From the IMG/VR virus record IMGVR_UViG_3300024346_000197: DNA of 38,758 nucleotides; one strand, 5' to 3'. This DNA comes from a virus. This document shows positions 4,344 to 25,222 of the stretch, in pieces. Positions within the stretch are counted from its first letter, which is position 1. Every line of letters starts with the position of its first letter. The translations under genes and the position numbers were made by a program. The notes beneath the pieces were generated by a model. That model saw only the letters and a program-made list of their open reading frames with translations, was not told the DNA's origin and did not search any database.

Positions 4344-5324
4344 ATGGACGAGCAGACACTTGCGCTTATTGCGGCGATGCAATCTGGGAAATTAACAGAC
4401 TATTCCTCGGCAACAATGGACCCTGTGCTGTCTTATTTGATGGGGACTTATCGCCCTAAGCCACAGTTTGATGAGACGCAGATGTGGGAGCGTTATGCTC
4501 CCAACACTCTGCTGGCCGCACAGGGAGACCCTAAGGACCCATACACAATTGCTGCAGCAAAGATTCGTGCTGGTGCAGCACCTTGGAGTCTTTATGATGA
4601 GATTCCAAAAGATGTTAAACGTGGTTCTTGGACAAAGTTTGTTGACTCAATTGCCAATGAACAGCAGATTGTTAAATCGAAGATGATGGAACAGGCATTA
4701 GAACAAGACCCATTTGAGAAGCAGGGTCTTCCACGTGCTGATGCAAAGTATCAGCTTGAAGACATGTACAAGTACAACCCAGATGCTTTCAGCAAAATCA
4801 TGGAAGGTTTTGATGCAGCATCTGCTGCTGAAAACAAGAAGAGGTCTGAAATTCGTGGCATGTACGGTGATGTTTTTGCAACAAATGAAGCAGACAAAAT
4901 GAAAATGGCAATGGAAATTCAAAAACAAAATGCTCGTGATAATAAAAAGAAAGAATCAAGCGATTCCGTTTTAAGCACTATTCGTACTGGATTCGGTAAA
5001 GGAATGAGAATATTTCCGATGGTTGTTAGTCAGTATTATGGTGACGAATTTGACCAAAAGAAAAGAGCAACAGAGGCACTTGGTAAAGACGAATTCAAAG
5101 GACCCATTAAAGATTTAGGTAAGTCAGCAATGAATGATGCTTATGCAACTTTTCTTGAATCAATGCTTGCTCGCAAACCAGGAACTGCAAGTCGAAAGGT
5201 GTCTGACGCCGAGAGACTTGCTGGTGTAATACAAACAGAACTTGAATCACGAGGTGGTAGTCCATTAAAAGATGCACTTATACAAGCCGCAATGATGAAG
5301 GCTGTATTGAAGCGTGGTAAGTAA
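4344..5324 (+). CDS. Hypothetical virion protein (326 aa from ATG 4344; the ORF opens at TTG 4338)
   Basis: Open frame 4338..5324 with aaaggg upstream of ATG 4344. Lys/Glu/Ala/Met-rich helical sequence. Sits between the internal-protein candidates and the giant gene. Confidence 0.65.
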   Translation: MDEQTLALIAAMQSGKLTDYSSATMDPVLSYLMGTYRPKPQFDETQMWERYAPNTLLAAQGDPKDPYTIAAAKIRAGAAPWSLYDEIPKDVKRGSWTKFVDSIANEQQIVKSKMMEQALEQDPFEKQGLPRADAKYQLEDMYKYNPDAFSKIMEGFDAASAAENKKRSEIRGMYGDVFATNEADKMKMAMEIQKQNARDNKKKESSDSVLSTIRTGFGKGMRIFPMVVSQYYGDEFDQKKRATEALGKDEFKGPIKDLGKSAMNDAYATFLESMLARKPGTASRKVSDAERLAGVIQTELESRGGSPLKDALIQAAMMKAVLKRGK

Positions 5325-8300
5325 AAACCAAGATTCCAACGAAGTTCTTAATGCCCTAAAGCAAATTACTGCTAGCAAGGCACCAAAGAGACAGAGTGTT
5401 TTGCCAGATATTGGTAGACCCATTGTTCGTGAATCTTCTCTAACCGAGAATCTCCTCAAGCAACTTGATTCGAATCCATACAGGAAACCCGGTACGTTTT
5501 TTCCCAAGACACTAGAGTCTTCTGATAATTCAAAACTAGAAAATGCTCTTACTAACGCTAAGAATGCGAGTAGTATTCTTGGCACTTTGGGCAATATTAT
5601 GAATGTTGCTGACATACCTAAGCGTGCTGTTATTTCTTCTTTGAGAGAAACTATAGATGCTCTGGATGGTAATGAAGAAACCAAAGCATCTTTTTCTGAT
5701 TGGAAAGAACAAGTTGGAGATAGGGAATACGGTTTTGGTAAAGCATTTCCGATGAAGGGTTGGGCTGGACGTGCAATGGGTTTGACTGGTGACTTGTTGT
5801 TTGACCCGGTTAACTGGGCAACATTTGGTGGTTCTATTCCTTTTAAGGCTGTTATTAAAATGAGTGCTAGGGAGTTTATTGAACTGTCAGCAAAAGAACT
5901 TGCTGAAGGTTCTACAAGGAAATTTATTGTTAAGAAGACTCTTGAAAATGGCGATGTGTTGGTTAAAGCAAGAAGCGTTCTTGGCAAGAATGTTATTGGA
6001 CGAGATGGTCGTGCTGCTCTTGGTAGGTTTACCAAGAAGAGATTAACTTTCTTGCGTGATGCTGGTGAAGATGGTTACAAACATCTTACCGATGATATGA
6101 TTACTAGAATTTCTGGTGAAGTTTACGCAGATGGTAAGCGTGTGTTTTTTAGAAATCCTAACCTTCCCGCTGGATTTGCGGAATCCATCGGTGTTCGGGG
6201 TCCAGGTATTTATTATTTTGGTAGTCGATTTAAGGTTCCTGGAACAACAGGTATTGGTCGTTTGGGCGAAGATGTATTGACTGAACTGCGTTTGTATGTG
6301 TCGACCACAAAAGCGGGTAAGGCTATTCGTACGGCTACAACTGGGCAAGGTGTTGGTCGTATTATGCGGATGGGTGTCAAGGGTGTTGACAAGAAAACTG
6401 GTGAAGACATAATTCTCAACGCATTGGTGCGGGCGAGAGTGAATCTTGCCGATGGTTCTTTGTTGTCCCCAGCGGAAATAAACCAAGCAATGGCCGTTAT
6501 AGAGATGCATGATTTTGCACGTATACGTCGTGTTGTCCACGTGGAATCTGAAAGCAACAATATGTCTCCACTTGCAGATGAGCTTGCTGCTGTTGAAAAT
6601 GGTTATAGGTATTTGGACCAGGTTCCTACAGCAGAAATACAAGCACGTGCTGCGTCTGGAGATACTGGTTCTGTGGTCGCCTTGAAGGTTAGACAGTACA
6701 TGGACTATTTGTGGTCAAGGGCTAATGCTCGTTCAAAGGCTGTTGGTGGAACGGAAATTCCATACAACGATGGATACTTTCCACACATGGAAACAGCACA
6801 GGCAAAACAAGACAGACTCTTAAAGGGTAATGACGCATTCGACGCCATGTTATATGGCGACGATGCGATGGACCCTTTGGCAAGGAACCAGATTCCAAAG
6901 TCAGACCGTAGAACAGTCTTTAATGAACGTCAGTTGGAAGAGGGTGACAAATGGTTTGGTGTAACTCTTAGACAAGCAGATTTGACCGCTGACAGACTAA
7001 ATGAAATTGCACGTGCAAGTGGCAGGGTTAATTTTGACATGTTTGAAACAAACACAACAAAAGTTCTTGCAGAATACTTGCAACAGTTCTCAGACCAAAT
7101 GAGTTGGTATGACGCTTTGGAGTATGGAGCTAAAGAGTTTCCAGACCTTTTGAGTTTTGGAGAAATGTTGATGAAGATTTCTCCAACGTATTCAAATGAA
7201 ATTATGAAGAAGCGACCTAACCAGATGTTTAGGGCTCTTGAAACAGCGATTCGTAAGCATTCGTTGTTTTTGGACAACTCGCTTACGAGTGTTAGAAATG
7301 AGTTGATTTCTAAGCATGGTTCATTTGAAGCAGCATTGATTGCAATGCGTGAGGGCACAATGTCGGCCACAGAACTTGACAGTTTGTTGAAAGCATTGAA
7401 TGAGCAGATGGCTGTTGCCGAAGGTCTTGATGCGCAATATAAGCAGATGCTTGCAGATATTTCTGCACAATTTGAAAATCGTGATGGAATCAGTGGTTTT
7501 AGTTTGTTTCTTGAGGGTACAAGAAGTGTTCAAGCATCTCAGAAGTTTGAGGAACTGAAAGCTTTGGTGAAAGAATTTTCTGGTTTTTCTTATGTTGACA
7601 TGACTCCAGAAAGATTACAACAACTTGAACCATTGTTTAGGGCTTACGAACAGTACACAGAGGCTGTTGGCGTGTTGTCACGAGACATTGAGTTTTCTTC
7701 ATTAGTGTCTGACGTATTTCCTGGTTTGAATAATCTTGGTGAGTACGGAGCGGCACAACAGTATGACATATTTGCAAAGATTATTGATGAACTTGGTGAA
7801 CCCAGCATGAGTACTACTGCTCGCCAGTTGTCTTCTCTATGGGGCCCAAAGAATCCAATTGAATTTAGGACTCTTGGTGTTAGTCGGGAAGCAATTGATG
7901 CTGTTTCACGCATGACTATTGATGATATTAACTCATTTCTTGATGAAGTAAGACTGATGGATGTTGACCAACTTGCGGTACTTGGTGATGGTGTGAAATC
8001 TGGTACTGGTAGGGGCAACAACTTTGCACTTTGGTTGCAGGCTCTTATTGTTGAGAATGAAAAGCTTGCTAGTGGTGGGTTTGAATCTAGTTTTCTTGAT
8101 GATGCGAAAACTTTTCTCGATATTAAAGTTCGCAAGAGAATGAACCCGTACGATTTTAACGCAGTTGACACAACTAAAGCTGATGGAACTTTTAATCAGT
8201 GGAAGTCTGCTGTTAAGAGACTTCTTGTTGGTGATGTTGAGGGTTTTGAGGATTTGTTGATTCAACAAAAAGCATTGTCAACGATTTACAAATGGCAAGA

Positions 8301-11300
8301 AATGTATGCTCCATTTGGAATTCAGATTGGTGATGATGTTATTGATGAAATAGTTCAACGTGAAGCAAGGGATTATGCGTTGATTGCTTTACGTAATGGT
8401 GATGAGAAAAGGTTTGCCGACCTCACCTCTGCAAAGTTTGGTCGAAATGGCGGTACTGGCCCACTTGGTACACATCGTCTGATTGAGCGTCAGCGTCAGA
8501 TATTTGAAGACATGATGGACTTGCATGGCTTTGATGTTAGGACTGGCACTTTTGCGGATGGCAAACCCCTTCCGGTTGCAACTAGGAAGCTTCCAGGCTC
8601 TCAATCACCTCGTGTTGAAAGCGTTATTAAAAACCTGTCCGAAGAACAGCAAAGACAATGGGCTCGTGTTTCTCAAGAAAACAAACAAGTACTTGATTAT
8701 GTTGATAGTCGTATTGAATTTATAAAGAATGCAAGAAACAACATGCAGTCAGGTAGTGAACTGCAAACGATTTGGGACTCTATATCCGAAAGATTTGTTA
8801 ATTCATTAAAGTCGATTGAGTCTGGTGAGTTGTTCAATATTGTGGACGACTCAGCATCTGGTGGAAAGATTTTATTTGATGATTTGATTACAGAAATGTA
8901 TGAGGTTGCCAAGCAGATAGGTGACGCTGCACGATTGAGTCAAGACCCAATTGCGGCTAGAACTATTGAAGATAACTGGAACAGTTTTATTGATGAAATG
9001 GCAAATCAAATTGAACGCACTAGGTTTATCTTGCAGAATTATAGTCCTGAAAGCCAGATGTATAAGCAACAAAAATTCCAAATTAGAATGATTATTTCTA
9101 ATAAGATGTTGCAAGAATTTGATGCAACTAAGACAATTTTCTTCAATGGGTTTAACTCTAATCTTGATTCAATGTCTGATGAGATGCTACGTCTTGTGCG
9201 TATGCGTAGGCAGGCTTCAAATGTTTTGAATAACCCAGAGGATTATTTTAGGACTGGGCCTGGCAGATTCGATACCAGCAATGTGGACGAATCAATACTT
9301 GCCGCACCTCGTTCTTTAGACGAGGGCGGAAGAGTTGTTGACACTAGAACTGGTGAACTTGTTCCGCCTACAGAGCAGGAGCTTGATGTGATAATTGCAA
9401 ATTATCGCAACAGCGACCAGATGCCGATTGCACGGTCTGCTGAGAATAATGCCAACCGTGCCCACAGTCTTGTGCATGTTGATTTGAGTAAGATGCCTGC
9501 AGACCAGATGCCTGGTGGTGTTGTGTTTACTCCAGACGAATGGGACAACATTGTTCTTGGTGGCGCACTTGAAACTGGTAGTCCTAAGTTTGATGCTTTC
9601 TTGACAGCATTGCGTAGTCAACGTGGTGGCGATGTTTCTGACGACAGGTTGATTGATGGGTTTGTTGATTTTGTTCTTACTAACTTTAGGGATACGGATG
9701 CAGTTGTCAAGAACAGTAAGGTTATTGCTTATCGTCGTAAACAGATTCGTTTGAACTGGAAAAAATCTGAGCATTACTCATGGTTGGAGAATTATAGGAC
9801 TTACGAGCAAAGGAAGTTTGCTAAGGCTTTTGCAGCGAATGCTTCTGATGAAGTCAGACAGCTTGATGCTGCCTCGAATGCAATTACTTATGTTAGAGAA
9901 GCGAGTAAGGAAGCAGTTGTTGATGTTCCTGCTTTTACGGTATCAAGAAGACAGTTGTTGATAAAAGCGTTTGATAATTTTATTGAGACTATGGAAAAAG
10001 TTCAGAAGACTATTCCCAAGAAAGAAACAAGAGTTGCTTTTATCGAAGAAGCAACTCCAAGTATTGACAAATCTTTTAACCCTGGTGCAAAAGAAGTTGC
10101 TGATGAGTTTGATGATTCTGTTGAGACAATCATTAATGATGCTCTTGGTATTGGAGAGGGTACATCCAAAAGCCCAAAGGTTAGCCAAGTTGAATCACGC
10201 ACTTTTCTTGGCAGAGATGGTGAAGGAATGGAGGTTGCTGATTTTGAAGCGCTTCCAATAACTGGTCTTTCTGGTTCTGATGAGGTTCTTCTTTTGAGGA
10301 ACAGGGAAAATGCAAGGGTTGTTGACTCATTTCTTAAAGGTTCTAATGTTGAGAAATCAACACAGCAACTTGAAAGAGAAGTTCGTATTCTTGAAACCTT
10401 GATAAATAACAAGATGGATACTCCATGGACTACGGGTAAGAGTAAGCGAGTTTTGGTTCGTTTACGTAAAGCAGAAATAGCAAAGCGTGAAGGATTTGTT
10501 GTTACTCCTGCGGGTTCAAGACTTAAGGGCAATTGGACTTATGGGCCATTACCATTTGATGATTTTGAAAGTGCAATTGAATATGCAAAAAGAATAGTCA
10601 GGGAAGAAAAACTCGTTCTTGCAAAACCCAAGGATGTTGAACGTTTGAAGAAATTTCTCGAACAGGCTGCGTACAGGACGAAGTACAACATGACTCCCGA
10701 ACTGCAAACAGCAGTAAATATTGTTAGTGGTCCTTCTGAAACTCAGATTGACAAGATGCTGTTTTCGGTTAATAGTTTTATTGATAATGCTTTGAAAAAG
10801 CGTAATGGCAAATACAATCGTAGTTTGGCTGTCACACCCGAAGATGTTGATTATTACATGTCAAAATTGAGAGAACCAGATTTTGATTATGAGGTTGCTG
10901 AATTAGCAGAACTTGATGATTTGCGTAATGCAATCAACTTGAAGAAACTTCCAGAAACCGAAATGGTTTCAGTCCCAAAGGATATGTCTCCTGTTGCTAC
11001 GGACGTCCCAATGGACGCCGCAGCCAAACTGCAAGCAGAGTTGGAATTACTTGGTAAGAGTTCGACCACAGAGGTGGAGCGATTGGGCAAAGATGTTGCT
11101 GAAGCCCGTTCTGTGGCCGACAGGTTGCAAGCAAAGTACGACTTGGGTGTTGCATCTAATGAGGCTGTTGATGAGGACCAGGTTAAATTTCTGCAGAACC
11201 GCATTGAGGTTTTGCAGAAATTGGTTGATGATTCACAGATTGAAGTTCGTGCCGGACGTGGTAAGCAGGCAACCCTTGATTACTCAGATGGTATTTCATT

Positions 11301-12717
11301 TGAATACACGAAACATCAAGAAGCCAAGAAGTTTTTGGAGCATGCGAATGAGGTGTTGTCTTTGCTTGGTGCTAAGACGAATGGTGACTTTGATTCTTTG
11401 GATTCGATTCTTCGTGCGCAGATTGCATCTGAACTTGAAGTGCATCTTGCTGTTGCCGGCATGAAGTCTGCACAACATGACAGGCTTATTCTTGAAGGTG
11501 TACAGAAAATGATTGACGACGGTGGAAGGCTGTTACCAGATGGACGTGTTCAAATGGCTGATGGTTTGATAGTTGATGGTGTTTCTGTTGATGCTGTTGT
11601 TGAAGCTGGTAAGGGCATTAGGGCTGGATGGGATTCTATTAGTAAGAACTTCCCTGAACTTTATGGTTCACCTGAGATGGTTGAACTATTGAATAATGCA
11701 GCACGTTTTGAAGACCCTGAGTTTATTAGGAAGATGGCTTACTACATTGGGCCGTACACAAAGTTGTTCAAAGCCTTTGCTGTTCTGTCACCTGGTTTCC
11801 ATGTGAGAAACGGATTGGGCAATGCAATTCAACTTGCATTGGCTGGTGTTGAAATGGACAATGCAATTCTTGGCACAAAGATGTTTAAGCGATGGATGGA
11901 CGCATCCAAACAGGGCAAGAGTTGGAACGAGTTTATTGTCACTCTTGAACCACAGATGCAGGAAATAATGAAGACTGCAAGGAATGGTTCTATTGGTTCT
12001 GGTGGTGGTATCTACACAGAAGTAATGAAAGAAGCTTCTGGCAATAGGATTATGGATTGGTGGTTGATTAGGAAGAACTATTCCTTTGGACAGGCATCCG
12101 ACAATTACAGCCGATTTGTATTGTCTTTTGACTCTGCAATGAAAGGCAATGACGTGTTCATGGCAGCAGCACGAGTGAAGCGTTTTTATTTTGACTATGA
12201 AGACCTGAGTACTGTTGACAAATTCATGAAGCAAATCATGCCGTTCTGGTTGTTCTATTCACGCAACTTGCATACGCAGATAACGAACATGTGGTTGAAC
12301 CCACGCCCATACCGTATTTATTACAACATTAAAAACAACATTGCGGATAGGGAAACTCCGAATCCACCATTTGTTGAGGAGATGGGTGGATTTAGATTGC
12401 CATTTGGCGATGGCTTGTATGCCATGCCAGATTTTGGATTTACACGTGTTAATAAAGAACTTTCAGATTTAGCCAATCCGATAAGAATGGTACCTAGATT
12501 AAATCCTTTGTTTGTTGTTCCATTTGAACAGTTGACCGGACGTGACTCTTACAGTGGTACTAAGTTTACTGATGCTAATGACAGGTTGTTGAATGCTTTG
12601 ACAAGCATTGCACCACCTGCACAGCAATTTGACAAATTGATTACAAACGATAACCCAATGTCACAGCTCAACGCTTGGCTTGGTTATCTTGGTTCGCCAG
12701 TAAGAAAATACAACTAA
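5314..12717 (+). CDS. Giant virion-associated protein (2467 aa); putative internal/ejection protein
   Basis: Single uninterrupted 7.4 kb ORF. GTG at 5314 overlaps the upstream gene by 11 nt. The central part has long coiled-coil-like stretches. The C-terminal ~450 aa look globular (FHVRNGLGNAIQLALAG, RFYFDYEDLSTVDKFMKQIMPFWLFYSRN). It occupies the T7 gp15/gp16 position. I recognised no enzymatic motif. Confidence 0.75.
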   Translation: MVSKNQDSNEVLNALKQITASKAPKRQSVLPDIGRPIVRESSLTENLLKQLDSNPYRKPGTFFPKTLESSDNSKLENALTNAKNASSILGTLGNIMNVADIPKRAVISSLRETIDALDGNEETKASFSDWKEQVGDREYGFGKAFPMKGWAGRAMGLTGDLLFDPVNWATFGGSIPFKAVIKMSAREFIELSAKELAEGSTRKFIVKKTLENGDVLVKARSVLGKNVIGRDGRAALGRFTKKRLTFLRDAGEDGYKHLTDDMITRISGEVYADGKRVFFRNPNLPAGFAESIGVRGPGIYYFGSRFKVPGTTGIGRLGEDVLTELRLYVSTTKAGKAIRTATTGQGVGRIMRMGVKGVDKKTGEDIILNALVRARVNLADGSLLSPAEINQAMAVIEMHDFARIRRVVHVESESNNMSPLADELAAVENGYRYLDQVPTAEIQARAASGDTGSVVALKVRQYMDYLWSRANARSKAVGGTEIPYNDGYFPHMETAQAKQDRLLKGNDAFDAMLYGDDAMDPLARNQIPKSDRRTVFNERQLEEGDKWFGVTLRQADLTADRLNEIARASGRVNFDMFETNTTKVLAEYLQQFSDQMSWYDALEYGAKEFPDLLSFGEMLMKISPTYSNEIMKKRPNQMFRALETAIRKHSLFLDNSLTSVRNELISKHGSFEAALIAMREGTMSATELDSLLKALNEQMAVAEGLDAQYKQMLADISAQFENRDGISGFSLFLEGTRSVQASQKFEELKALVKEFSGFSYVDMTPERLQQLEPLFRAYEQYTEAVGVLSRDIEFSSLVSDVFPGLNNLGEYGAAQQYDIFAKIIDELGEPSMSTTARQLSSLWGPKNPIEFRTLGVSREAIDAVSRMTIDDINSFLDEVRLMDVDQLAVLGDGVKSGTGRGNNFALWLQALIVENEKLASGGFESSFLDDAKTFLDIKVRKRMNPYDFNAVDTTKADGTFNQWKSAVKRLLVGDVEGFEDLLIQQKALSTIYKWQEMYAPFGIQIGDDVIDEIVQREARDYALIALRNGDEKRFADLTSAKFGRNGGTGPLGTHRLIERQRQIFEDMMDLHGFDVRTGTFADGKPLPVATRKLPGSQSPRVESVIKNLSEEQQRQWARVSQENKQVLDYVDSRIEFIKNARNNMQSGSELQTIWDSISERFVNSLKSIESGELFNIVDDSASGGKILFDDLITEMYEVAKQIGDAARLSQDPIAARTIEDNWNSFIDEMANQIERTRFILQNYSPESQMYKQQKFQIRMIISNKMLQEFDATKTIFFNGFNSNLDSMSDEMLRLVRMRRQASNVLNNPEDYFRTGPGRFDTSNVDESILAAPRSLDEGGRVVDTRTGELVPPTEQELDVIIANYRNSDQMPIARSAENNANRAHSLVHVDLSKMPADQMPGGVVFTPDEWDNIVLGGALETGSPKFDAFLTALRSQRGGDVSDDRLIDGFVDFVLTNFRDTDAVVKNSKVIAYRRKQIRLNWKKSEHYSWLENYRTYEQRKFAKAFAANASDEVRQLDAASNAITYVREASKEAVVDVPAFTVSRRQLLIKAFDNFIETMEKVQKTIPKKETRVAFIEEATPSIDKSFNPGAKEVADEFDDSVETIINDALGIGEGTSKSPKVSQVESRTFLGRDGEGMEVADFEALPITGLSGSDEVLLLRNRENARVVDSFLKGSNVEKSTQQLEREVRILETLINNKMDTPWTTGKSKRVLVRLRKAEIAKREGFVVTPAGSRLKGNWTYGPLPFDDFESAIEYAKRIVREEKLVLAKPKDVERLKKFLEQAAYRTKYNMTPELQTAVNIVSGPSETQIDKMLFSVNSFIDNALKKRNGKYNRSLAVTPEDVDYYMSKLREPDFDYEVAELAELDDLRNAINLKKLPETEMVSVPKDMSPVATDVPMDAAAKLQAELELLGKSSTTEVERLGKDVAEARSVADRLQAKYDLGVASNEAVDEDQVKFLQNRIEVLQKLVDDSQIEVRAGRGKQATLDYSDGISFEYTKHQEAKKFLEHANEVLSLLGAKTNGDFDSLDSILRAQIASELEVHLAVAGMKSAQHDRLILEGVQKMIDDGGRLLPDGRVQMADGLIVDGVSVDAVVEAGKGIRAGWDSISKNFPELYGSPEMVELLNNAARFEDPEFIRKMAYYIGPYTKLFKAFAVLSPGFHVRNGLGNAIQLALAGVEMDNAILGTKMFKRWMDASKQGKSWNEFIVTLEPQMQEIMKTARNGSIGSGGGIYTEVMKEASGNRIMDWWLIRKNYSFGQASDNYSRFVLSFDSAMKGNDVFMAAARVKRFYFDYEDLSTVDKFMKQIMPFWLFYSRNLHTQITNMWLNPRPYRIYYNIKNNIADRETPNPPFVEEMGGFRLPFGDGLYAMPDFGFTRVNKELSDLANPIRMVPRLNPLFVVPFEQLTGRDSYSGTKFTDANDRLLNALTSIAPPAQQFDKLITNDNPMSQLNAWLGYLGSPVRKYN

Positions 12718-17043: not shown

Positions 17044-17471
17044 TAGCGACCTCGTGGTGGCCAGTAAGCCTTCTCGGCATCAACTGCCTTGAACGACGGA
17101 CGCTTTGGATTTGCAGCCAAACCGTCACGGTTGTCGTAAACAGTTGTTACACCGTCACGCTTACATGCTTTGATGAGCCACTCTGGCAAAGGTCCATGCT
17201 GTAGTCCCTTGACAGTCACAGTTCCACTTGAACCACTCATTGGCGTATTTACTTCATCTGCGTTGAAAGTGTCTTTTGCCATCTGAATGATGTTGTTGTT
17301 TTGTGTCTGTGATTCTTCGCCACCATAGATTTGTTCCATGATGATTTCTGTAATTGATGAGAACAACGTGGTGAATTCGCCAAGTCGTTCGTCAACTCCA
17401 GTTGATTTATCTGTTAGGTCTGCTGCAATTTTTGCACAGACTTGGGTGATTATTGCCCTGTCCTTATCCAT
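17043..17471 (-). CDS. Hypothetical protein (142 aa) between exonuclease and helicase
   Basis: TAATG couplings at both ends. No recognisable motif. The position would suit a DNA-binding or annealing accessory protein, but that is speculation. Confidence 0.6.
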   Translation of the reverse strand: MDKDRAIITQVCAKIAADLTDKSTGVDERLGEFTTLFSSITEIIMEQIYGGEESQTQNNNIIQMAKDTFNADEVNTPMSGSSGTVTVKGLQHGPLPEWLIKACKRDGVTTVYDNRDGLAANPKRPSFKAVDAEKAYWPPRGR

Positions 17472-18307
17472 TATGCCTCCTCGGCATTGTTAGTTTCGCC
17501 CGTGATGTACGAGCCTTTGCATTTATCCCACACTGGACACCATCTCTGTGAACAGAGAAAGTGTTGGTCATTGGCAAGCCATCGACCACCCGATGTGTTG
17601 TTATTGTACATTAGCACTGTTCGTGCTAATGCTGTTGCTTGTTCAACAATCCAGTTGCCATGGGCTTCTGTTCTGTTGACACTCACAATTTGTCCAGTAC
17701 TGGACGCATTGCGAATCATGACACCAAACTTGAATGTGGCTGGGTAATCAATTAGCCCCATTTCAACTGCTGCTTTGGTGTAAATAGATGATTGGATATT
17801 TTGTGATTGTTTTTCTGCTTCGTAATATTTACGTGCAGCAGTTTTCCAGTCCCAAATACTTTCTTGATGAAAGTAATCCATAGTTCCTTCAAAGTGAAGT
17901 TCGTAATCGTCAATCATTCCGACTTGAGTAGAGAACTTGAATTCAGGTTCTCCACCTAAAGGTACATGAGGGTAGATATCTCTAGCCCATGCTTCTGCCA
18001 TAGATGCAATGTGTTTGTCCCAGTTTCTAGGTTCGGTGTTGGTGATGTTGATTTTTTTGCCTTCAGCAAGTAAATGTTGTTCGCTCGAACGAAAAGCCCA
18101 CACTGAGCGTTCTGCAATGTCTTGTGTACCAATTTCTTCACGCAGGACATTTTCAATACCAGCGTGTACTGCCGTGCCCATCATGGCAGAGTCATTTTCT
18201 CTACGAGATTCCGGGTGTAACGCTGAAAGTCGTGCACGCTCAGGACACATAAGTGCATCCCCAAGCCAGCTTTGACGGATAAATATTTTATTGTCTTCTA
18301 TTCTCAT
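17471..18307 (-). CDS. Cas4/RecB-like PD-(D/E)XK exonuclease with a 4-Cys cluster (278 aa from ATG 18307; the ORF opens at 18415)
   Basis: MCPERARL supplies the N-terminal Cys. Other motifs are GTAVHAGIE, FEGTMDYF, IWDWKT (D/E-x-K) and QSSIY (Q-x-x-x-Y). C-terminal CSQRWCPVWDKC supplies three more Cys. ATG 18307 is preceded by ggagaa. Confidence 0.75.
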   Translation of the reverse strand: MRIEDNKIFIRQSWLGDALMCPERARLSALHPESRRENDSAMMGTAVHAGIENVLREEIGTQDIAERSVWAFRSSEQHLLAEGKKINITNTEPRNWDKHIASMAEAWARDIYPHVPLGGEPEFKFSTQVGMIDDYELHFEGTMDYFHQESIWDWKTAARKYYEAEKQSQNIQSSIYTKAAVEMGLIDYPATFKFGVMIRNASSTGQIVSVNRTEAHGNWIVEQATALARTVLMYNNNTSGGRWLANDQHFLCSQRWCPVWDKCKGSYITGETNNAEEA

Positions 18308-18340
18308 TTTTCTCCGTTGTGATTTGTGGACGAACTTGTT

Positions 18341-18372
18341 TGCACCCCAAACCCTTTGGGGTTTTGGGTGCA
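18341..18372 (-). promoter_or_regulatory. Imperfect 13-bp hairpin upstream of the exonuclease gene
   Basis: tgcaccccaaaccc-tttg-gggttttgggtgca has one mismatch. There is no U-tract on either strand. Confidence 0.4.
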
Positions 18373-18387
18373 CATGCTTTGCTTGTG

Positions 18388-18406
18388 CCCCCCCCTTACC
18401 CCCCCC
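18388..18406 (-). repeat. C8-TTA-C8 homopolymer pair (G8-TAA-G8 on the coding strand of this arm)
   Basis: Read directly: ccccccccttacccccccc in the 144-nt intergenic gap between the SLT and exonuclease genes. Confidence 0.9.
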
Positions 18407-18451
18407 ATTGTACACATTGTGTGTGAACTGTCAGGTATTAGGTGGAGATAC

Positions 18452-18904
18452 TTATTCCTCGCCCCAAGGGCCCCATCCGTTGTCATACCTGGCATCGGCA
18501 TAGTTATAGATTGCTAAGGCAGACCTGAGGTTGATTGATGGGTCTTGAAGGTCTGTCAGACGCTCCAGGATGCCCCTAGACGAGAGATACTTGACCCAGA
18601 AGCCATTTACTTGCATGAGCCCCCAAGAGCCTTTATTTGGGTCATCTTTGTTGATTGCATAGAGACTGCATTTTGATTCTCGCCACATGATTTTGTCTAA
18701 TTTGTCTAGCAGGCTACGTGACCAGCCTTCCTGAACGGCAAGATGCCACCATTGAGGACATTTGGCGTCCACAGGTGGGCGAACCATGGCTCCTTCTGGG
18801 GCTCGCAGGTTTCTGACTAGCAAAGACCCTTCCGAAGTGGGGTTTGTTGGGGGCAAAACACCCCCAAGAATTAGGCTAAGTGTGACTGTTATTTGTGCTA
18901 TCAA
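18452..18904 (-). CDS. Lytic transglycosylase (SLT domain) with an N-terminal hydrophobic segment (150 aa)
   Basis: MWRESKCSLYAIN carries the catalytic Glu-Ser. GLMQVNGFW and ALAIYNYA follow the SLT pattern. The N-terminus MIAQITVTLSLILGGVLPP is hydrophobic. TTG start overlaps the upstream stop. Confidence 0.75.
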   Translation of the reverse strand: MIAQITVTLSLILGGVLPPTNPTSEGSLLVRNLRAPEGAMVRPPVDAKCPQWWHLAVQEGWSRSLLDKLDKIMWRESKCSLYAINKDDPNKGSWGLMQVNGFWVKYLSSRGILERLTDLQDPSINLRSALAIYNYADARYDNGWGPWGEE

Positions 18905-19125: not shown

Positions 19126-19646
19126 GGTAGTTGCATAACTGTTTTTGCTGTCGACATTGCCTTCACAAAGTCGTAGAATATTTCAAGTGCTGTCTTAAGA
19201 GAGCCTTGAGCGTTACCTGTGTCGTAGGTGATTTCTTCTTTGCCCTTGAAATGGATTGCTGAACCCATTTTGCCGTTATGTAACAAAGTTACAAGGCGTA
19301 CACGCACACGTTCCGGATGTTGTGATGGTGCTACATCATCATCATAATCTCCATCTTTGTCGATTGGTGCAGCCCAACCGCATGTGCTGACTGCAAAACT
19401 TTTGAATCCAGAATCAACAAGTGCTGCCACATTGCCCATGTCAGCGAGCATCTCATAAATGTCGCTGTCTTCTGCCACAACTTTGCACCATGGGATTTCA
19501 CCGTGGATGTAGTCGAACCCGAACAATGTTGCTTTTGGTAATTGGAATTCATCATCGTGTAGTTCCACGATTTTTTCTGTGATAGCACGGTCAATTTCTT
19601 TGATTGTTGTCTCAAACTTTTCCGTGTAGTTGATTGCCTTTGTCAT
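19122..19646 (-). CDS. Hypothetical protein (174 aa)
   Basis: Overlap-coupled at both ends. Globular acidic sequence. No recognised motif. Confidence 0.65.
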   Translation of the reverse strand: MTKAINYTEKFETTIKEIDRAITEKIVELHDDEFQLPKATLFGFDYIHGEIPWCKVVAEDSDIYEMLADMGNVAALVDSGFKSFAVSTCGWAAPIDKDGDYDDDVAPSQHPERVRVRLVTLLHNGKMGSAIHFKGKEEITYDTGNAQGSLKTALEIFYDFVKAMSTAKTVMQLP

Positions 19647-19909
19647 GCTGGTATCTCCTGTTTCTGTTTCTGTTTGGATTTTCTGTATTGTGTTTTGCCG
19701 TCATACAGGGTCACTCCCCCCCATATGCCGAATGATTGCGTTGCAACTCCATAGTCAAAACATTTTTTTTTGATTGAACATGTTTTGCATATTTCTTTTG
19801 CTTTTTTTGTTGTGACGATTGCCTGTTTGTTCATAGGCCATACAGGAAACCACCACTTGGTTGGTTGGTTTTTACAGTTTGCTTTACTGAAGTCTGGTGC
19901 TTTATGCAT
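19643..19909 (-). CDS. whiB: WhiB-family Fe-S transcription factor (88 aa)
   Basis: Four Cys (C...CKTCSIKKKC = C-x2-C-x5-C) followed by FGIWGG, the WhiB G-[VI]-W-G-G turn, and a basic C-terminal tail. Confidence 0.8.
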   Translation of the reverse strand: MHKAPDFSKANCKNQPTKWWFPVWPMNKQAIVTTKKAKEICKTCSIKKKCFDYGVATQSFGIWGGVTLYDGKTQYRKSKQKQKQEIPA

Positions 19910-20426
19910 CGAGCTTTGTTATTAGTCGATTGCCGAGAGTGTTTAGGATTTGTTCAATGATTCGGTTCTCCATGTTTATTGCCATCTCCGTAATTTTGTC
20001 GTCGACACGTGTAGCGATATCCATGTTTTCTATGTAGGTTTGCATTGCGTTGTTCATTTGTGTTCTGAATCGGTTATTTGAAACAATTGCAAAAGTCAAT
20101 GTTTCTGAGATGTTTTCGCTACCAAGTATTTCTGAACTTATTTCTGAGTAGTCAAGATTGTCCCTGATATCTGTAGTGATTGAGTCGTAGTCAATTGACT
20201 CCATAACCCAGTCACGAATCTTGCGACAGAAGTCTCGGTCATTTCTGATTAAGTCTGAAACATTGTCTGCAACATCAGATGCTGTTGGGATGCGACCATT
20301 TACATGTCGCTCTACTTGGTCAATAATGGTTGTTTCCATTGACTGATTGAATAGTGATGGCATTGATGCGCTGTCCAAAGACACATCGAATTCCATAACT
20401 GATGGGATGAGTTTGATTGTTGTCAT
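19902..20426 (-). CDS. Hypothetical protein (174 aa)
   Basis: Coupled ORF. Acidic, Ile/Asn/Asp-rich. No motif. Confidence 0.6.
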   Translation of the reverse strand: MTTIKLIPSVMEFDVSLDSASMPSLFNQSMETTIIDQVERHVNGRIPTASDVADNVSDLIRNDRDFCRKIRDWVMESIDYDSITTDIRDNLDYSEISSEILGSENISETLTFAIVSNNRFRTQMNNAMQTYIENMDIATRVDDKITEMAINMENRIIEQILNTLGNRLITKLDA

Positions 20427-20683
20427 TTTGTTTCCAACTTTCTTACGATGATTGAGTAACCGGTTTCACCCTCATGGATTGCCCATTCGAGTGGGTACTT
20501 TGCATAGATGTTTTTTCTTTGAGCAACTTTTTGTTGAGTTGCCATCAACTCTTTCCTTGTTTTTGTTTCTGAAGTGAATTCGATTATCCACTTGTTTGGT
20601 TCTGCTGTCATCATGATTTCTTTGACAAGCGCTTTTGTTTTTTGTTGTCTGATTACTGGGTTTTCGATGTATTGAAGTTCCAT
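20423..20683 (-). CDS. Hypothetical protein (86 aa)
   Basis: ATGA-type overlap with the downstream gene. No motif. Confidence 0.6.
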   Translation of the reverse strand: MELQYIENPVIRQQKTKALVKEIMMTAEPNKWIIEFTSETKTRKELMATQQKVAQRKNIYAKYPLEWAIHEGETGYSIIVRKLETK

Positions 20684-20692
20684 GATTTCTCC

Positions 20693-21673
20693 TTAGTAGT
20701 AACTTGGGTGTGTGTTTGTACCGGTTGGTGTTTCCCAACCGTGTTCTATCAATGTTGTATCTGATTCAATCCATAGTGCGTCCCAACAATCGCAAGCATC
20801 CATTGCACATAGCAAGCATGCACTACATGTTGCACAGTTTGTACGAAGCTCGTCATTGGGAACAATGTCTTGGATTCCACATCTTTGACAATCAACCATG
20901 TTGCGTGTTGCGTCATAGACGGTTGTGTACAACTCTGCTGCTTCGTAGCATTCCTCGGCGCTCAATGCGCCGATTGGAATCAATGCTTCATCGTCATCGT
21001 CATACATTGTTGTTGCTTTGTCCCACGATGATGCATACGACGTTGTTTTGTAACCGTAGTCCCAATCATTCCAACCACCGCCGTACATACCTGTGTGTCG
21101 CCTGTATGTAATTGCTGCTGGTTTGTATGACTCATTTGACCACCACACATCAGAATCCCAGTGACCATCTTTTTCGTTGAGGATGTACCAGTCATACTTT
21201 GCATCGTCATTGACGGTTAGGAACGCAAGCTTCGAACCCTTAGCCCACGTTGCCATCTGCTGGAAGTATTCACCATCATCAAGAGACGAGATGCCACCGA
21301 TTGCCGGCATAATGTCTTCAGCGAACACTCTGGTATCAGAGCGTGTCTCATTCTTTTCCATTTTGACAGGCAAGATACCGTTGTGGCCGAGCACGGTGTT
21401 TTTGTCTTCACCAAGTAGGAAAGGATGACAGTTGTCAACTGTGTTTGTACCGTGAGTAGTCCAACGGAAGTGGAAGATTGCAGGCCCTTGCATCTTTTTG
21501 CGAGCGTCCACAAACTTGTTTGCAACTTCTTCAAAGTCCATACTGCGAACAATGTGAAGTTTTTTACCTGTTGAAATAGCAAAGCCGAACCCATCAGGGT
21601 TGGCTTTAGCGGCGACACGGAACCTGTCCATGTCTGGTGTTACGTAGTCTGGTATCAGTGTGAGTAAACACAT
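20693..21673 (-). CDS. Class-II (Ntn) glutamine amidotransferase-like protein with a C-terminal Cys-cluster extension (326 aa)
   Basis: The N-terminus MC supplies the Cys nucleophile. HFRWTTHG, NCHPF and GHNGIL follow the GATase class-II (YafJ/GATase_4-like) pattern. The C-terminal ~130 aa are W/Y/G/D-rich and then carry CQRC...CATCSACLLCAMDACDC. Confidence 0.75.
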   Translation of the reverse strand: MCLLTLIPDYVTPDMDRFRVAAKANPDGFGFAISTGKKLHIVRSMDFEEVANKFVDARKKMQGPAIFHFRWTTHGTNTVDNCHPFLLGEDKNTVLGHNGILPVKMEKNETRSDTRVFAEDIMPAIGGISSLDDGEYFQQMATWAKGSKLAFLTVNDDAKYDWYILNEKDGHWDSDVWWSNESYKPAAITYRRHTGMYGGGWNDWDYGYKTTSYASSWDKATTMYDDDDEALIPIGALSAEECYEAAELYTTVYDATRNMVDCQRCGIQDIVPNDELRTNCATCSACLLCAMDACDCWDALWIESDTTLIEHGWETPTGTNTHPSYY

Positions 21674-21674
21674 A

Positions 21675-22691
21675 TTAAACTAACTCCCTTTCTTTTACTC
21701 TTTCTGAAATTCTTTGGTTGAGGATGTGGAACTTTGAGCGTTCGATTGTCCATTTGTTGAATGAATCGAACATCAATCCACCTGATACGGCTTCTTTTAT
21801 GTTCACATCTTTTGTGTACTCAAATAGTGCTTGAGCAAATTGAATTGCTGCTAGCACCGTGTCTGTGTTGAGTGATGGACGGAAGAACCGTAACTCAATT
21901 GTTTTTGTGTTTTGCAAATTGACCGCCATGAACCGTTCCGAGTTCATCACATGTCCCTTTGCCATTTGAGTCAAGGTGTTGCCCTTGATTGTCTTTTCCT
22001 CGTAGTGGTCGTATCGAGCATTGAGGAACATGTTCATGTCAAATCGTGCATAACGAGTTGACTCACGACCAGCGAATTGCACAAGTGGAATGCGATTTTT
22101 ATAGATGAAGTAAATGAATTTCATCAAGTGTGAATCGTTGATGAATGCATTGCGTGACAAGTGCAAATGCAATCCACATGTGCTTGCATTCCAGGCATGA
22201 AATCCACGAGACTTCAAACCAGAAATTGCTTTCCAGTTGAAATCTTGCATGAAGAATTCCATTGTGCCGGGATGTGAAACAATTTCGAAGCCATGGTCAA
22301 GTGAACCATCAGATTTGAGGTAAACAGTTTCCATTCCGCTGATTACAGTGTTTGCTTTTACAAACCTTGCACCGTTCATTCTGTCACCAGAAACACATTC
22401 TGTTTCCAATTCGACTCCGATATACAACTCAGGGCTCATTTTGTCCCCGTTGTATTTTGTTACTGAACGATATGCCGAACGGAAGTCACCGTTTTCATGC
22501 ATGAAGATTGGACGTTTCTTGAATGCCCACGGAAGGATGAGACCTTCATCATTGTCATCACTGTTGTGGTTTGTGTATGATTCATAGCAATCTTCACCAC
22601 ACCACCAATCGCCACCGATATCGACCATGTCCTCGATTTCGTATGTTTCTTCACAGTTTGGGCATGTGATTTCTTCATTATTTCTTGGCAC
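21675..22691 (-). CDS. Amidoligase (glutamine-synthetase-fold COOH-NH2 ligase, Amidoligase_2-like) with an N-terminal zinc ribbon (338 aa)
   Basis: Motifs are YIGVELETE, DGSLDHGFEIVSHP and CGLHLHLSR. The N-terminus has CPNC...CGEDC. GTG start is preceded by aaaggagaa. Confidence 0.7.
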   Translation of the reverse strand: MPRNNEEITCPNCEETYEIEDMVDIGGDWWCGEDCYESYTNHNSDDNDEGLILPWAFKKRPIFMHENGDFRSAYRSVTKYNGDKMSPELYIGVELETECVSGDRMNGARFVKANTVISGMETVYLKSDGSLDHGFEIVSHPGTMEFFMQDFNWKAISGLKSRGFHAWNASTCGLHLHLSRNAFINDSHLMKFIYFIYKNRIPLVQFAGRESTRYARFDMNMFLNARYDHYEEKTIKGNTLTQMAKGHVMNSERFMAVNLQNTKTIELRFFRPSLNTDTVLAAIQFAQALFEYTKDVNIKEAVSGGLMFDSFNKWTIERSKFHILNQRISERVKERELV

Positions 22692-22842
22692 TGACTTCTC
22701 CTTTTTGGATGGAAAAACCCATCATTTGCTGGAGTTTTTCGTTTTCTTTTCTGAGGTAGGTGATTTCTTCTTGTGCAGCCCTCATTAGGTTGGTGGCTTG
22801 TTCCAATGCTTCGTTGATTTCATTGATGGTTGGTATTGACAT
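22678..22842 (-). CDS. Small coiled-coil protein (54 aa)
   Basis: Under 60 aa, so absent from the track. ATG 22842 is preceded by ggaggg. Sequence: MSIPTINEINEALEQATNLMRAAQEEITYLRKENEKLQQMM.... The stop overlaps the amidoligase start region. Confidence 0.6.
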   Translation of the reverse strand: MSIPTINEINEALEQATNLMRAAQEEITYLRKENEKLQQMMGFSIQKGEVSAKK

Positions 22843-22850
22843 GTGCCCTC

Positions 22851-23009
22851 CTAGTAGGACTGTTCTTTTTGCGGCGAACCCGACTTGATAAGAGTTATAT
22901 CAAGCAAGTTGTTTAGTTTTTTGTTTTCGATGATGAGTTTTTCGTTTTCTTGCATAAGCATGATTACGACCTCATTCATGTATTTGATTTGCTTGCGTTT
23001 AGTAATCAT
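22851..23009 (-). CDS. Small coiled-coil protein (52 aa from ATG 23009)
   Basis: ATG 23009 is preceded by gaaagg. Sequence: MITKRKQIKYMNEVVIMLMQENEKLIIENKKLNNLL. The longer track ORF would run through the hairpin at 23031..23066. Confidence 0.55.
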   Translation of the reverse strand: MITKRKQIKYMNEVVIMLMQENEKLIIENKKLNNLLDITLIKSGSPQKEQSY

Positions 23010-23030
23010 TACTAACCTTTCGTGAGAGGG

Positions 23031-23066
23031 TGTTTGTGCGCCACCCACCAAGGGGGCGCACAAACA
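23031..23066 (-). terminator. Perfect 12-bp GC-rich hairpin (tgtttgtgcgcc / ggcgcacaaaca) in an intergenic gap; candidate U-tract-less terminator or attenuator
   Basis: Read directly. It lies between the stop at 23079 and the start at 23009. Confidence 0.5.
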
Positions 23067-23078
23067 GACGAACACAAT

Positions 23079-23372
23079 TCACAAATTCAACTCACGTTGC
23101 AGGTTGACCCAACTTGCAACGATTTCTGCTGCTTCCACAAATGGTGGCACATCAATGTTTTCCCACATTTTGTTGACAATAGTTATGTCATGATTAGTGA
23201 AGAACAATGCATACTCCTCGTCGTACGTGTACTTGTTGAACACGCTTGTTAGTAGATGGAATTGCCAATCATGGTCAAACATGGTTTTGATAGTTATCAA
23301 ATATGTTTTGTTTTCAACGATTGGGTCGCCCACCCGCCAATCAACGAGTAGTTTTGAAAATTCAGCACTCAT
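23079..23372 (-). CDS. Hypothetical protein (97 aa)
   Basis: ATG at 23372. Globular W/F/Y-rich sequence. No motif. Confidence 0.6.
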   Translation of the reverse strand: MSAEFSKLLVDWRVGDPIVENKTYLITIKTMFDHDWQFHLLTSVFNKYTYDEEYALFFTNHDITIVNKMWENIDVPPFVEAAEIVASWVNLQRELNL

Positions 23373-23408
23373 TTAGACCCATCCGAGACTTTCCCCCTCT
23401 GTGTTGAA

Positions 23409-23541
23409 AACCGATTTCGACTGACCCCCTTGCGGGGTCATGTCGGAATCGGTTCGTGTTTTGACCTGAACCATTACGCACTGTTTTGTGCGTAATGATG
23501 TAATCGGCAATTTTGTGTTTCGCTAACGAACAGTTAGCGAA
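23409..23541 (-). promoter_or_regulatory. Array of three stem-loops in a non-coding leader
   Basis: 23409..23454 is an imperfect ~19-bp stem. 23472..23497 is a perfect 10-bp stem (cattacgcac/gtgcgtaatg). 23519..23541 is a perfect 8-bp stem (ttcgctaa/ttagcgaa). Confidence 0.6.
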
Positions 23542-24842: not shown

Positions 24843-24908
24843 TAAAGCCCAATGTTGACCTGCCAGGGCAATCGCAGGGTTCATGTTGTTTTGTGTCCAC
24901 CAATGGAC
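24843..24908 (-). promoter_or_regulatory. Repeated intergenic element, copy A (candidate early promoter/operator)
   Basis: taaagcccaatgtt...agggcaatcgcagggttcatgttgttt....tccaccaatggac matches 25145..25211 at most positions with a 1-nt indel. It contains the inverted repeat gtcca-nnnn-tggac. Confidence 0.6.
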
Positions 24909-24918
24909 AAAGCATGTA

Positions 24919-25144: not shown

Positions 25145-25211
25145 TAAAGCCCAATGTTTTGCTTGCTAGGGCTATCGCAAGGTTCATGTTGTTTAGAGTC
25201 CACCAATGGAC
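25145..25211 (-). promoter_or_regulatory. Repeated intergenic element, copy B
   Basis: See copy A. It sits at the same distance from the downstream start codon. Confidence 0.6.
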
Positions 25212-25222
25212 GATGCTGAAAA

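Follow-up and report, generated by a model that had tools for sequence, protein, structure and literature searches.

What could a predicted carboxylate-amine ligase and a predicted glutamine amidotransferase (GATase), encoded a single nucleotide apart in a phage, be doing together? The question is raised by IMG/VR virus record IMGVR_UViG_3300024346_000197, a stretch of 38,758 nucleotides that was analysed whole and is called the window below. We find support for both enzyme assignments, we find that the two genes occur side by side in nearly all the related loci inspected, and we propose, tentatively, that their products act as a two-subunit enzyme that would amidate a carboxylate. The window pair is a fresh example of a widespread, predicted and biochemically uncharacterised phage module, and its novelty is low to moderate.

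Organization of the gene pair

An earlier note on this DNA, made without database searches, had described a ligase gene followed by a GATase gene, each fused to an extra Cys-rich module. Both open reading frames (ORFs) are found where it placed them, on the minus strand, and all the motifs it quoted occur in their translations. The parts of the pair, with amino acid (aa) ranges and, where modelled, the predicted local distance difference test (pLDDT), are the following.

22678..22842, minus strand: 54-aa ORF whose end overlaps the ligase start
22698..22703, minus strand: Shine-Dalgarno-like AAGGAG, 6 nt upstream of the ligase GTG (sequence reading)
21675..22691, minus strand: ligase gene from the ORF list, 338 aa, GTG start
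22584..22670, minus strand: ligase ribbon, aa 8-36, C10-x2-C13 ... C31-x3-C35
21687..22439, minus strand: ligase catalytic domain, aa 85-335, placed by conserved residues, Pfam and fold match
21684..21690, minus strand: Shine-Dalgarno-like AAGGGAG within the final ligase codons (sequence reading)
21671-21677, minus strand: ligase TAA (21675-21677), one nucleotide (21674) and GATase ATG (21671-21673) (sequence reading)
20693..21673, minus strand: GATase gene, 326 aa, ATG start, made up of the four parts below
21113..21673, minus strand: N-terminal nucleophile (Ntn) glutaminase domain, aa 1-187, pLDDT above 90, GlmS/PurF/EgtC fold
20972..21112, minus strand: disordered linker, aa 188-234, pLDDT ~30
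20759..20971, minus strand: 8-Cys module, aa 235-305, pLDDT 78-88, beta-hairpins
20696..20758, minus strand: disordered C-terminal tail, aa 306-326, pLDDT ~32, ending ...NTHPSYY

Exactly one nucleotide separates the ligase stop codon from the GATase start, and the junction reads ...GAA AGG GAG TTA GTT TAA T ATG TGT... Because a Shine-Dalgarno-like element lies inside the 3' end of the ligase gene and is followed by the stop, one nucleotide and ATG, the two genes look like a classic translational-coupling arrangement. The GTG start of the ligase is supported by its homologues, which start MP..., and the small ORF overlapping this start is present in 1 of the 86 related loci described below.

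The first gene encodes a predicted ligase of the glutamine-synthetase fold

The ligase carries the motifs YIGVELETE, DGSLDHGFEIVSHP and GLHLHLSR behind CPNC...CGEDC, the pattern from which the earlier note had recognised a COOH-NH2 ligase of the glutamine-synthetase (GS) fold, and that recognition stands on several lines. The profile hidden Markov model of Pfam Amidoligase_2 (PF12224) matches aa 133-289 with 25.2 bits against a cut-off of 22 (E=1.8e-5), a precomputed PF12224 match is borne by many homologues, and the protein matches PHROG 16683 (1e-35), 22302 (9e-27) and 2443, 'amidoligase enzyme' (1.7e-9). There is no NCBIfam equivalog for it, and a sequence-profile search of the PDB for a solved relative returned noise only. 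The residues E94/E96/E98, K126-D128-S130, E136, H175/H177, R209, R253, N258 and E266-R268 are invariant in an alignment of 35 sequences and invariant or at least 90% conserved in one of 121 sequences; alignments of this larger size, spanning 31-99% identity, were made for both proteins.

The AlphaFold2 model of the ligase is confident (pLDDT 91, predicted TM-score (pTM) 0.83), and Foldseek places it with YbdK (1r8g, E=1.3e-4), GS (8fbp, 2.4e-4) and GCL (2gwc, 1.6e-3), at TM-scores of 0.35-0.40. The relation to GS and GCL is remote (TM ~0.4, ~12% identity), and the matches to Dop/PafA are weaker still (E ~7e-3 to 4e-2, TM ~0.27-0.34). Among predicted viral structures, the model matches dozens labelled 'Amidoligase enzyme', with E values up to 1e-26 and a TM-score of 0.74, including one Marvin-cluster protein, as well as one labelled 'LIM domain containing protein'. 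We assign the product of the first gene, with high confidence in this prediction, to Amidoligase_2, that is, to the ATP-dependent carboxylate-amine ligases of the GS fold, and its acidic, His and Arg residues would map one-to-one onto the metal, ATP and acyl-phosphate site of GS.

The second gene encodes a predicted class-II glutamine amidotransferase

The translation of the second gene begins MC... and contains HFRWTTHG, NCHPF, GHNG and CQRC...CATCSACLLCAMDACDC. The Pfam search proposed in the earlier note, which succeeded for the ligase, fell short here, GATase_4 reaching 19.5 bits under its 23-bit gathering cut-off, so the class-II assignment rests on other lines. NCBIfam glmS matches the N-terminal block only (4.7e-8), PHROG 25883 matches with 2e-39, and several homologues, one from Amycolatopsis among them, pass PF13230. 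A profile of the family finds GlmS in the PDB (1xff, E=3.2e-5), with HFRWATHG...NCHPF...HNG set opposite HTRWATHG...NAHPH...HNG of GlmS, and Foldseek with the model likewise finds the GlmS glutaminase domain (1xff, E=1.2e-7) together with PurF, EgtC, 1te5 and 3mdn, stand-alone class-II GATases being among the matches.

The protein starts MCLLT..., and its first two residues are at least 90% conserved, the exceptions being truncated gene calls; the predicted nucleophile is Cys2, which becomes Cys1 of the mature protein once Met is removed. R70, N98, G99 and D113 are invariant in the 121 sequences, and the block HFRW[AT]THG...NCHPF...HNG...RSDT aligns to the glutamine site of GlmS, where D113, from its SDT motif, is presumably the counterpart of Asp123. 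A family-specific motif, Y163-I-x-N...G-H-W...W-W-S-N-x-S-Y183, closes the domain. With high confidence, then, gene 2 is predicted to encode a class-II (Ntn, Cys1) glutamine amidotransferase domain, as the earlier note had supposed. GlmS, PurF and AsnB share with it the Ntn fold, Cys1, the Arg / Asn-Gly / Asp glutamine site and the RWATHG block, but in these enzymes an acceptor (synthase) domain of another fold is fused C-terminally, whereas in the window an upstream gene encodes the presumed acceptor as a GS-fold protein of its own, and a zinc-type module takes up the C-terminus of the GATase instead.

Two unrelated Cys-rich modules

Both extra modules noticed earlier are real and conserved in the alignments. 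The ligase ribbon, a putative C4 zinc ribbon, keeps C10, C13 and C31 in at least 90% of the sequences, with either C or H as fourth ligand; the model gives it short beta-hairpins (pLDDT 84-90). More distant ligase relatives carry 2-3 tandem CxxC...CxxC units with 8-23 Cys, and the ribbon is, judged from these alignments, a trait of the subfamily and not peculiar to the window phage. No curated zinc-finger family matches it significantly (Zn_ribbon_4 reaches 15.6 bits against a cut-off of 30.3), and LIM-like matches found with a 46-position Cys-rich profile are weak (E ~4e-4 to 2e-3).

In the GATase, the Ntn domain is followed by an acidic-aromatic, low-complexity linker that is rich in Y/D/S/G/W throughout the family, where it measures 20-82 aa (Y 13.7%, D 12.6%, S 10.6%). 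The Cys cluster after it had been counted as nine. The cluster itself stands, but it has eight conserved Cys, since the ninth, C242, lies upstream of it and outside the conserved columns. In the window it reads C262-x2-C265-x14-C280-x2-C283-x2-C286-x2-C289-x4-C294-x-C296-W297 and family-wide C-x2-C-x14-C-x2-C-x2-C-x2-C-x4/5-C-x-C-W, and none of the eight Cys varies among 34 sequences or falls below 90% conservation among 121. Their spacing suggests that the module probably binds two zinc ions in sequential sites, although it may alternatively bind an iron-sulfur cluster. None of 22 members has a Pfam family at E<0.01 over this module, the best PDB match is weak (the IBR domain of RNF31, E=0.03), and a profile search of 1.84 billion cluster representatives found it nowhere outside this GATase family. 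It is, on these searches, a family-restricted domain without a name, common to the mycobacteriophage Marvin and to prophage-like regions of actinomycetes, and because it is so confined, other protein contexts give no clue to its function. The two Cys modules have no detectable kinship with each other (hhalign probability 3%).

The disordered tail of the GATase ends HPS[YF]Y in 28 of the 121 homologues, other clades ending KE[IL][AS]K and similar. These clade-specific end motifs could be docking peptides or even substrates.

The ligase and GATase genes are linked across phages

Relatives in the protein collection number 1863 for the GATase and 638 for the ligase, and at least 593 IMG/VR viral contigs encode a relative of the GATase. 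We inspected 89 loci (80 from IMG/VR, 6 metagenome contigs and the phages Marvin, MEP402 and DES1); 88 of these have the ligase immediately upstream of the GATase and on its strand, bearing out the earlier statement that the two families co-occur in phages. Among the 86 related loci, no genes other than the ligase (85) and the GATase (86) come near to being universal. Their neighbours are kept in 1-64 of the 86 and small flanking ORFs in 1-11, with no third conserved partner gene among these loci, and because only the two are near-universal we regard the pair as a self-contained, autonomous two-gene module. Its subfamily has a constant location, the early/replication arm of the genome. The earlier note had named a missing profile match, absent catalytic sites or folds, and genes that are never linked as grounds against its proposal; what we found is a match, both sites and folds, and linkage.

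Phages of Actinobacteria, Proteobacteria and Clostridia have related forms, as do archaeal-binned contigs. Relatives in cellular genomes show at most 37% identity and fall into two groups, one from actinomycetes and one from Clostridia. In actinomycetes the ligase again precedes the GATase, and among the 19 loci whose GATase is clearly related (E<=6e-42), 14 have the 8-Cys module. One Amycolatopsis locus adjoins the gene for the DNA polymerase III beta clamp; we considered and rejected a biosynthetic cluster there, the context being prophage-like or replication-related. In Clostridia the GATase that comes after a multi-ribbon ligase is PurF-like, of class II and devoid of Cys modules; a small ORF sometimes separates the two, and the regions are prophage-like, with recombinase genes near. 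In three such loci of Ruminococcus / Oscillospiraceae (L149, positions 5593-7693, L121 and L110), the multi-ribbon Amidoligase_2 precedes a PurF-like GATase with an acidic helical C-terminus; the intervening ORF, where present, is conserved, with 73-84 aa (MNK..YYKK.YPAGTRIRL..MDDPY.P...), and the recombinases near these regions are serine recombinases.

A ligase-GATase pair was also seen at 6970-7803 of one 45-kb contig deposited in two archaeal metagenome-assembled genomes, Thermoplasmatales and Promethearchaeota (L112/L113). The C-terminus of its GATase holds two ordinary CxxC...CxxC ribbons in place of the 8-Cys module, and the contig is probably viral and mis-binned.

Each pair that we read at the level of single residues has a zinc-type module on one subunit or both (the window, Marvin, MEP402, LUZ24, a dozen IMG/VR loci, the clostridial loci and L112). 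We nevertheless reject one-to-one co-variation of the two modules, which the earlier note had raised as a possibility: the ligases of Clostridia and of OM43 phages have ribbons and their GATases no Cys module, and LUZ24 shows the reverse, a ligase without a ribbon and a GATase with one.

Comparison with known systems

The closest described relative is in Marvin (Marvinvirus, 18 related records), whose gp105 and gp106 have the gene order and strand of the window pair. The ligases share 30% identity over aa 4-328, ribbon included, and the Ntn domains of the GATases 41%. Marvin gp106 carries the 8-Cys signature of the window (CLIC...CDSCGTCQDC...CQCY), which tblastn missed because the linker is variable. 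Marvin gp105 also has a Cys-rich N-terminus; unlike the window ligase, it has 453 aa with an extra C-terminal region of ~120 aa. The Marvin pair lies at the right genome end, and both genes are annotated only as 'glutamine amidotransferase domain protein'.

The OM43 phages MEP401 and MEP402 (Zobellviridae), whose host is a proteobacterium, have an adjoining ligase-GATase pair (gp06/gp07) upstream of primase and helicase genes. Their ligase has a Cys-rich region ahead of the catalytic domain and 548 aa in all, with an unrelated N-terminal extension of ~270 aa; their GATase keeps the NE..GHW..VW.SN.SY end motif.

In LUZ24, Amidoligase_2 is again followed by a class-II GATase (gp18 then gp19), just upstream of replication genes and in the order of the window. 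The GATase is PurF-like, with 510 aa and a single C4-type ribbon at its end instead of the 8-Cys module. This pair sits inside a five-enzyme set, and systems of the LUZ24, phiEco32, tf and DES1 type add a COOH-NH2 ligase, a RimK-like ATP-grasp enzyme and a gamma-glutamyl cyclotransferase (GGCT). None of these three turned up in the 53 larger ORFs of the window that were searched with Pfam or PHROGs (with just one of the two libraries for about half of them, ORFs under 100 aa being mostly left out), and none is conserved beside the pair. With the window proteins, tblastn at E<=1e-5 matched nothing in systems of LUZ24/phiEco32 type.

Beyond phages, PafA and Dop are GS-fold enzymes that act on the terminal Glu/Gln of a protein; their structural match to the window ligase is weak and has no counterpart in sequence, nor was a Pup-like gene seen beside the pair. 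EgtC, a stand-alone gamma-glutamyl amidohydrolase resembling class-II GATases, is a fold match of the window GATase. MurT carries a Cys4 zinc ribbon, and MurT/GatD is like the window pair in the way it works only, having Mur ligase and class-I GATase folds and no sequence relationship to it. MurT/GatD consists of two co-transcribed genes for an ATP-dependent ligase and a glutaminase, which turn a carboxylate into an amide on lipid II (PMC3267633).

The amidoligase-GATase pair is mentioned in genome papers on LUZ24-like, tf, OM43 and Poseidoniales viruses. Its association with phages was reportedly described in 2009 by Iyer and colleagues. Later phage papers credit Iyer et al. (2009) with the pair in phiEco32. 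Papers to 2025 offer its function as a suggestion only, be it superinfection immunity, secondary metabolites or nitrogen metabolism, and the earlier note was right that neither substrate nor product has been established, since we found no functional study, substrate or product for the phage pair in the literature searched, up to 2025-2026.

What the pair might catalyse

Our preferred reading, which we put forward tentatively, is that the pair is a heteromeric enzyme for the glutamine-dependent, ATP-driven amidation of a carboxylate. The two proteins would be produced in equal amounts and assemble as a heteromeric amidoligase. The ligase would use ATP to phosphorylate the substrate carboxylate, giving an acyl-phosphate, and the Ntn subunit would hydrolyse glutamine and pass the ammonia to that acyl-phosphate, giving a carboxamide. 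The Cys modules would place the complex on its target or bind the subunits together. AsnB and GlmS follow this logic, as does MurT/GatD in functional terms. Because zinc modules are present, a carboxylate on a macromolecule or bound to one (a protein side chain, a C-terminus, a cell-wall precursor) would be favoured as substrate over a free metabolite; that the modules recognise a macromolecular substrate was already suggested in the earlier note and may be so. The ligase partners two subfamilies of class-II GATase, GlmS-like in the window and PurF-like in Clostridia and LUZ24, which suggests that glutaminase activity as such is what it needs, as would be expected in an amidotransferase complex.

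Four points weigh against amidation. To our knowledge, no characterised GS-fold ligase takes ammonia from a GATase partner. The conserved residues of the glutamine site would suit a gamma-glutamyl-amide hydrolase, EgtC for one, no less well. Pfam, like Iyer and colleagues, is said to view the class-II partner as a thiol peptidase or amidohydrolase. Finally, the GGCT, the RimK-like ATP-grasp enzyme and the second COOH-NH2 ligase that the larger relatives LUZ24 and DES1 add point to gamma-glutamyl or peptide chemistry.

The main rival is a reading, possible if somewhat doubtful, in which the two proteins write and erase. The ligase would form a gamma-glutamyl or isopeptide bond between Glu or a short peptide and an amine, the latter on a protein, a polyamine, a cell-wall component or a metabolite, and the Ntn protein would be a thiol amidohydrolase that trims or removes the gamma-glutamyl group, or deamidates Gln ahead of ligation, after the manner of PafA/Dop, EgtA/EgtC or PuuA/PuuD. 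The fold neighbours that Foldseek finds for the ligase, GS, GCL, YbdK and PafA/Dop, are all known to activate the gamma-carboxylate of glutamate, EgtC is there among the fold matches of the GATase, and systems of the LUZ24 and DES1 type carry GGCT and the RimK-like enzyme. The reading is itself ascribed, at second hand, to Iyer et al. (2009). What decides us for amidation is that, with no intervening enzyme conserved, a ligase that makes and a hydrolase that breaks one and the same bond would, in a two-gene module, run a futile cycle. Tight 1:1 translational coupling also suits a complex more than antagonists, and both partner subfamilies of GATase retain the full set of glutaminase motifs.

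A bolder version, which we hold to be rather unlikely, makes the pair an 'amide writer' guided by its zinc modules. With Gln and ATP it would convert specific carboxylates to amides, or gamma-glutamylate specific amines, on Glu/Asp side chains or the C-terminus of a host or phage protein, or on a carboxylated nucleic-acid or cell-wall moiety, and the adaptor for host-specific targeting would be the module at the C-terminus of the GATase, which is specific to each lineage (8-Cys in actinobacterial phages, others elsewhere).

It is improbable that the pair amidates cell-envelope precursors, altering a peptidoglycan or teichoic-acid carboxylate (D-iso-Glu, mDAP) by analogy with MurT/GatD or LtsA/AsnB for the sake of superinfection exclusion or lysis control. 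In its favour, MurT/GatD is a two-gene ligase and GATase, an SLT-type transglycosylase gene (18452..18904) lies in the same conserved arm, and a suggestion of this kind for phiEco32 is credited to Iyer et al. in citing papers. Neither protein, however, is homologous to Mur ligases, domain searches of the two proteins, which did not extend to membrane segments or signal peptides, gave no membrane or cell-wall pointer, and the SLT gene is merely part of the arm, with no specific link to the pair. Moreover, actinobacterial hosts are known to amidate these wall positions already.

Very unlikely, in our judgement, is DNA or nucleotide hypermodification, in which the pair would amidate or extend a carboxyl-bearing base on phage DNA against restriction. 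Zinc ribbons often bind nucleic acids, and the pair adjoins replication genes in the window and in LUZ24. In addition, the viral contigs studied by Lee et al. 2021 had thymidine-hypermodification clusters with which Pfam amidoligase and amidotransferase genes were co-associated. Against this, no dUMP hydroxymethylase, 5-HMUDK, aGPT-Pplase, TET/JBP, DpdA or DNA polymerase is among the 53 scanned ORFs, none of these is conserved with the pair in the 86 loci, and prophage-like regions of widely differing hosts carry the same pair.

Least credible is a role as auxiliary metabolic genes (AMGs) that raise the nitrogen or amino-acid metabolism of the host, for instance through glutamine or glutathione-like compounds made during infection, since, although this was proposed for a Planctomycetes phage with amidoligase, GATase, GGCT and glutathione synthase genes and the pair is listed as AMGs in marine phage surveys, the papers proposing it give no enzymology, the ligase is only remotely related to GS and GCL and has no equivalog, and zinc-ribbon/8-Cys modules with a disordered linker would be unexpected on housekeeping metabolic enzymes.

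Genome context of the pair

The window looks like the near-complete genome of a ~39-kb phage, and exact copies of both proteins were found on contigs of 38.8-39.0 kb. Its plus strand holds terminase and portal genes. The minus-strand arm with the pair encodes a WhiB-like regulator, an SLT lysozyme, a Cas4-like PD-(D/E)xK exonuclease, a DnaB-type helicase, an AEP-type primase and RusA, and the same arm is kept in ~40-kb relatives. Two of its features are placed as follows.

19643-19909, minus strand: WhiB-like transcription factor, PHROG 472, E=5e-14, ~0.8 kb downstream of the pair
18452..18904, within the same conserved arm: SLT-type transglycosylase

The WhiB-like gene is kept in 60 of the 86 related loci. 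Because WhiB is considered a marker of actinobacterial phages, and because freshwater 'Ca. Planktophila' phages are akin to the window in size and GC content, the host is probably an actinobacterium. Megablast of positions 20000-23500 against 50,697 phage records gave no match, so the region has no close sequenced relative in that set, and the portal protein has one match only, to an uncultured Caudoviricetes record at 39% identity.

No phage DNA polymerase appears among the 53 scanned ORFs, despite the helicase, primase, RusA and exonuclease genes, and no tRNA gene or Rfam family was found in the window. PADLOC defence-system models match neither protein of the pair nor three of its neighbours. 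A promoter and terminator scan gave one promoter-like site on the minus strand (20611-20583, just downstream of the pair) and no terminator-like site on that strand, and the overall counts of such sites were not above those in shuffled sequence.

Directly downstream of the pair lies the gene for a 174-aa protein (19902-20426, minus strand), with homologues in 43 of the 86 related loci, so that its linkage to the pair is not universal; its sole match is to Pox_polyA_pol_C, below threshold (E=1e-3). The Cas4/RecB-like exonuclease (17471-18415, minus strand; PHROG 69, E=1e-15) ends in a Cys cluster (CSQRWCPVWDKC) that may bind an iron-sulfur cluster. On the plus strand, alongside the packaging and portal genes, an ORF of 2467 aa (5314-12717) takes up ~19% of the genome; it has no Pfam match and is presumably a giant virion, tail or injected protein. 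A 53-nt direct repeat (24861-24913 and 25164-25216; 87% identity, starts 303 nt apart) lies at the upstream end of the early arm on the minus strand, surrounded by small ORFs. Each copy holds the palindrome GTCCACCAATGGAC, and the 31-nt core occurs twice in the window against 0 expected by chance; the repeat may be an early promoter/operator or a small RNA element.

Significance

The pair was predicted 16 years ago and its function is still called speculative in papers up to 2025. The question it raises is real, but neither new nor more tractable through this uncultured genome; the culturable relatives Marvin and LUZ24 are better experimental entry points. What the window contributes is a two-gene version in compact form, with a clear definition of its modules and, at residue level, of both catalytic cores. 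To the earlier prediction our analysis adds the ribbons as a subfamily trait, the 8-Cys module as a family-restricted domain, a quantified linkage and an autonomous two-gene core. With a reaction in hand, the labels 'AMG' and 'glutamine amidotransferase domain protein' on thousands of phage genes could be replaced. Were the pair indeed an 'amide writer', it would bring chemistry of phage-host conflict together with an architecture, a GS-fold ligase plus a class-II GATase, without characterised precedent. The reaction, once established, would define a new architecture in which a GS-fold ligase is fed or countered by an Ntn amidotransferase, and would probably show a new means by which phages mark or rewire components, their own or the host's.

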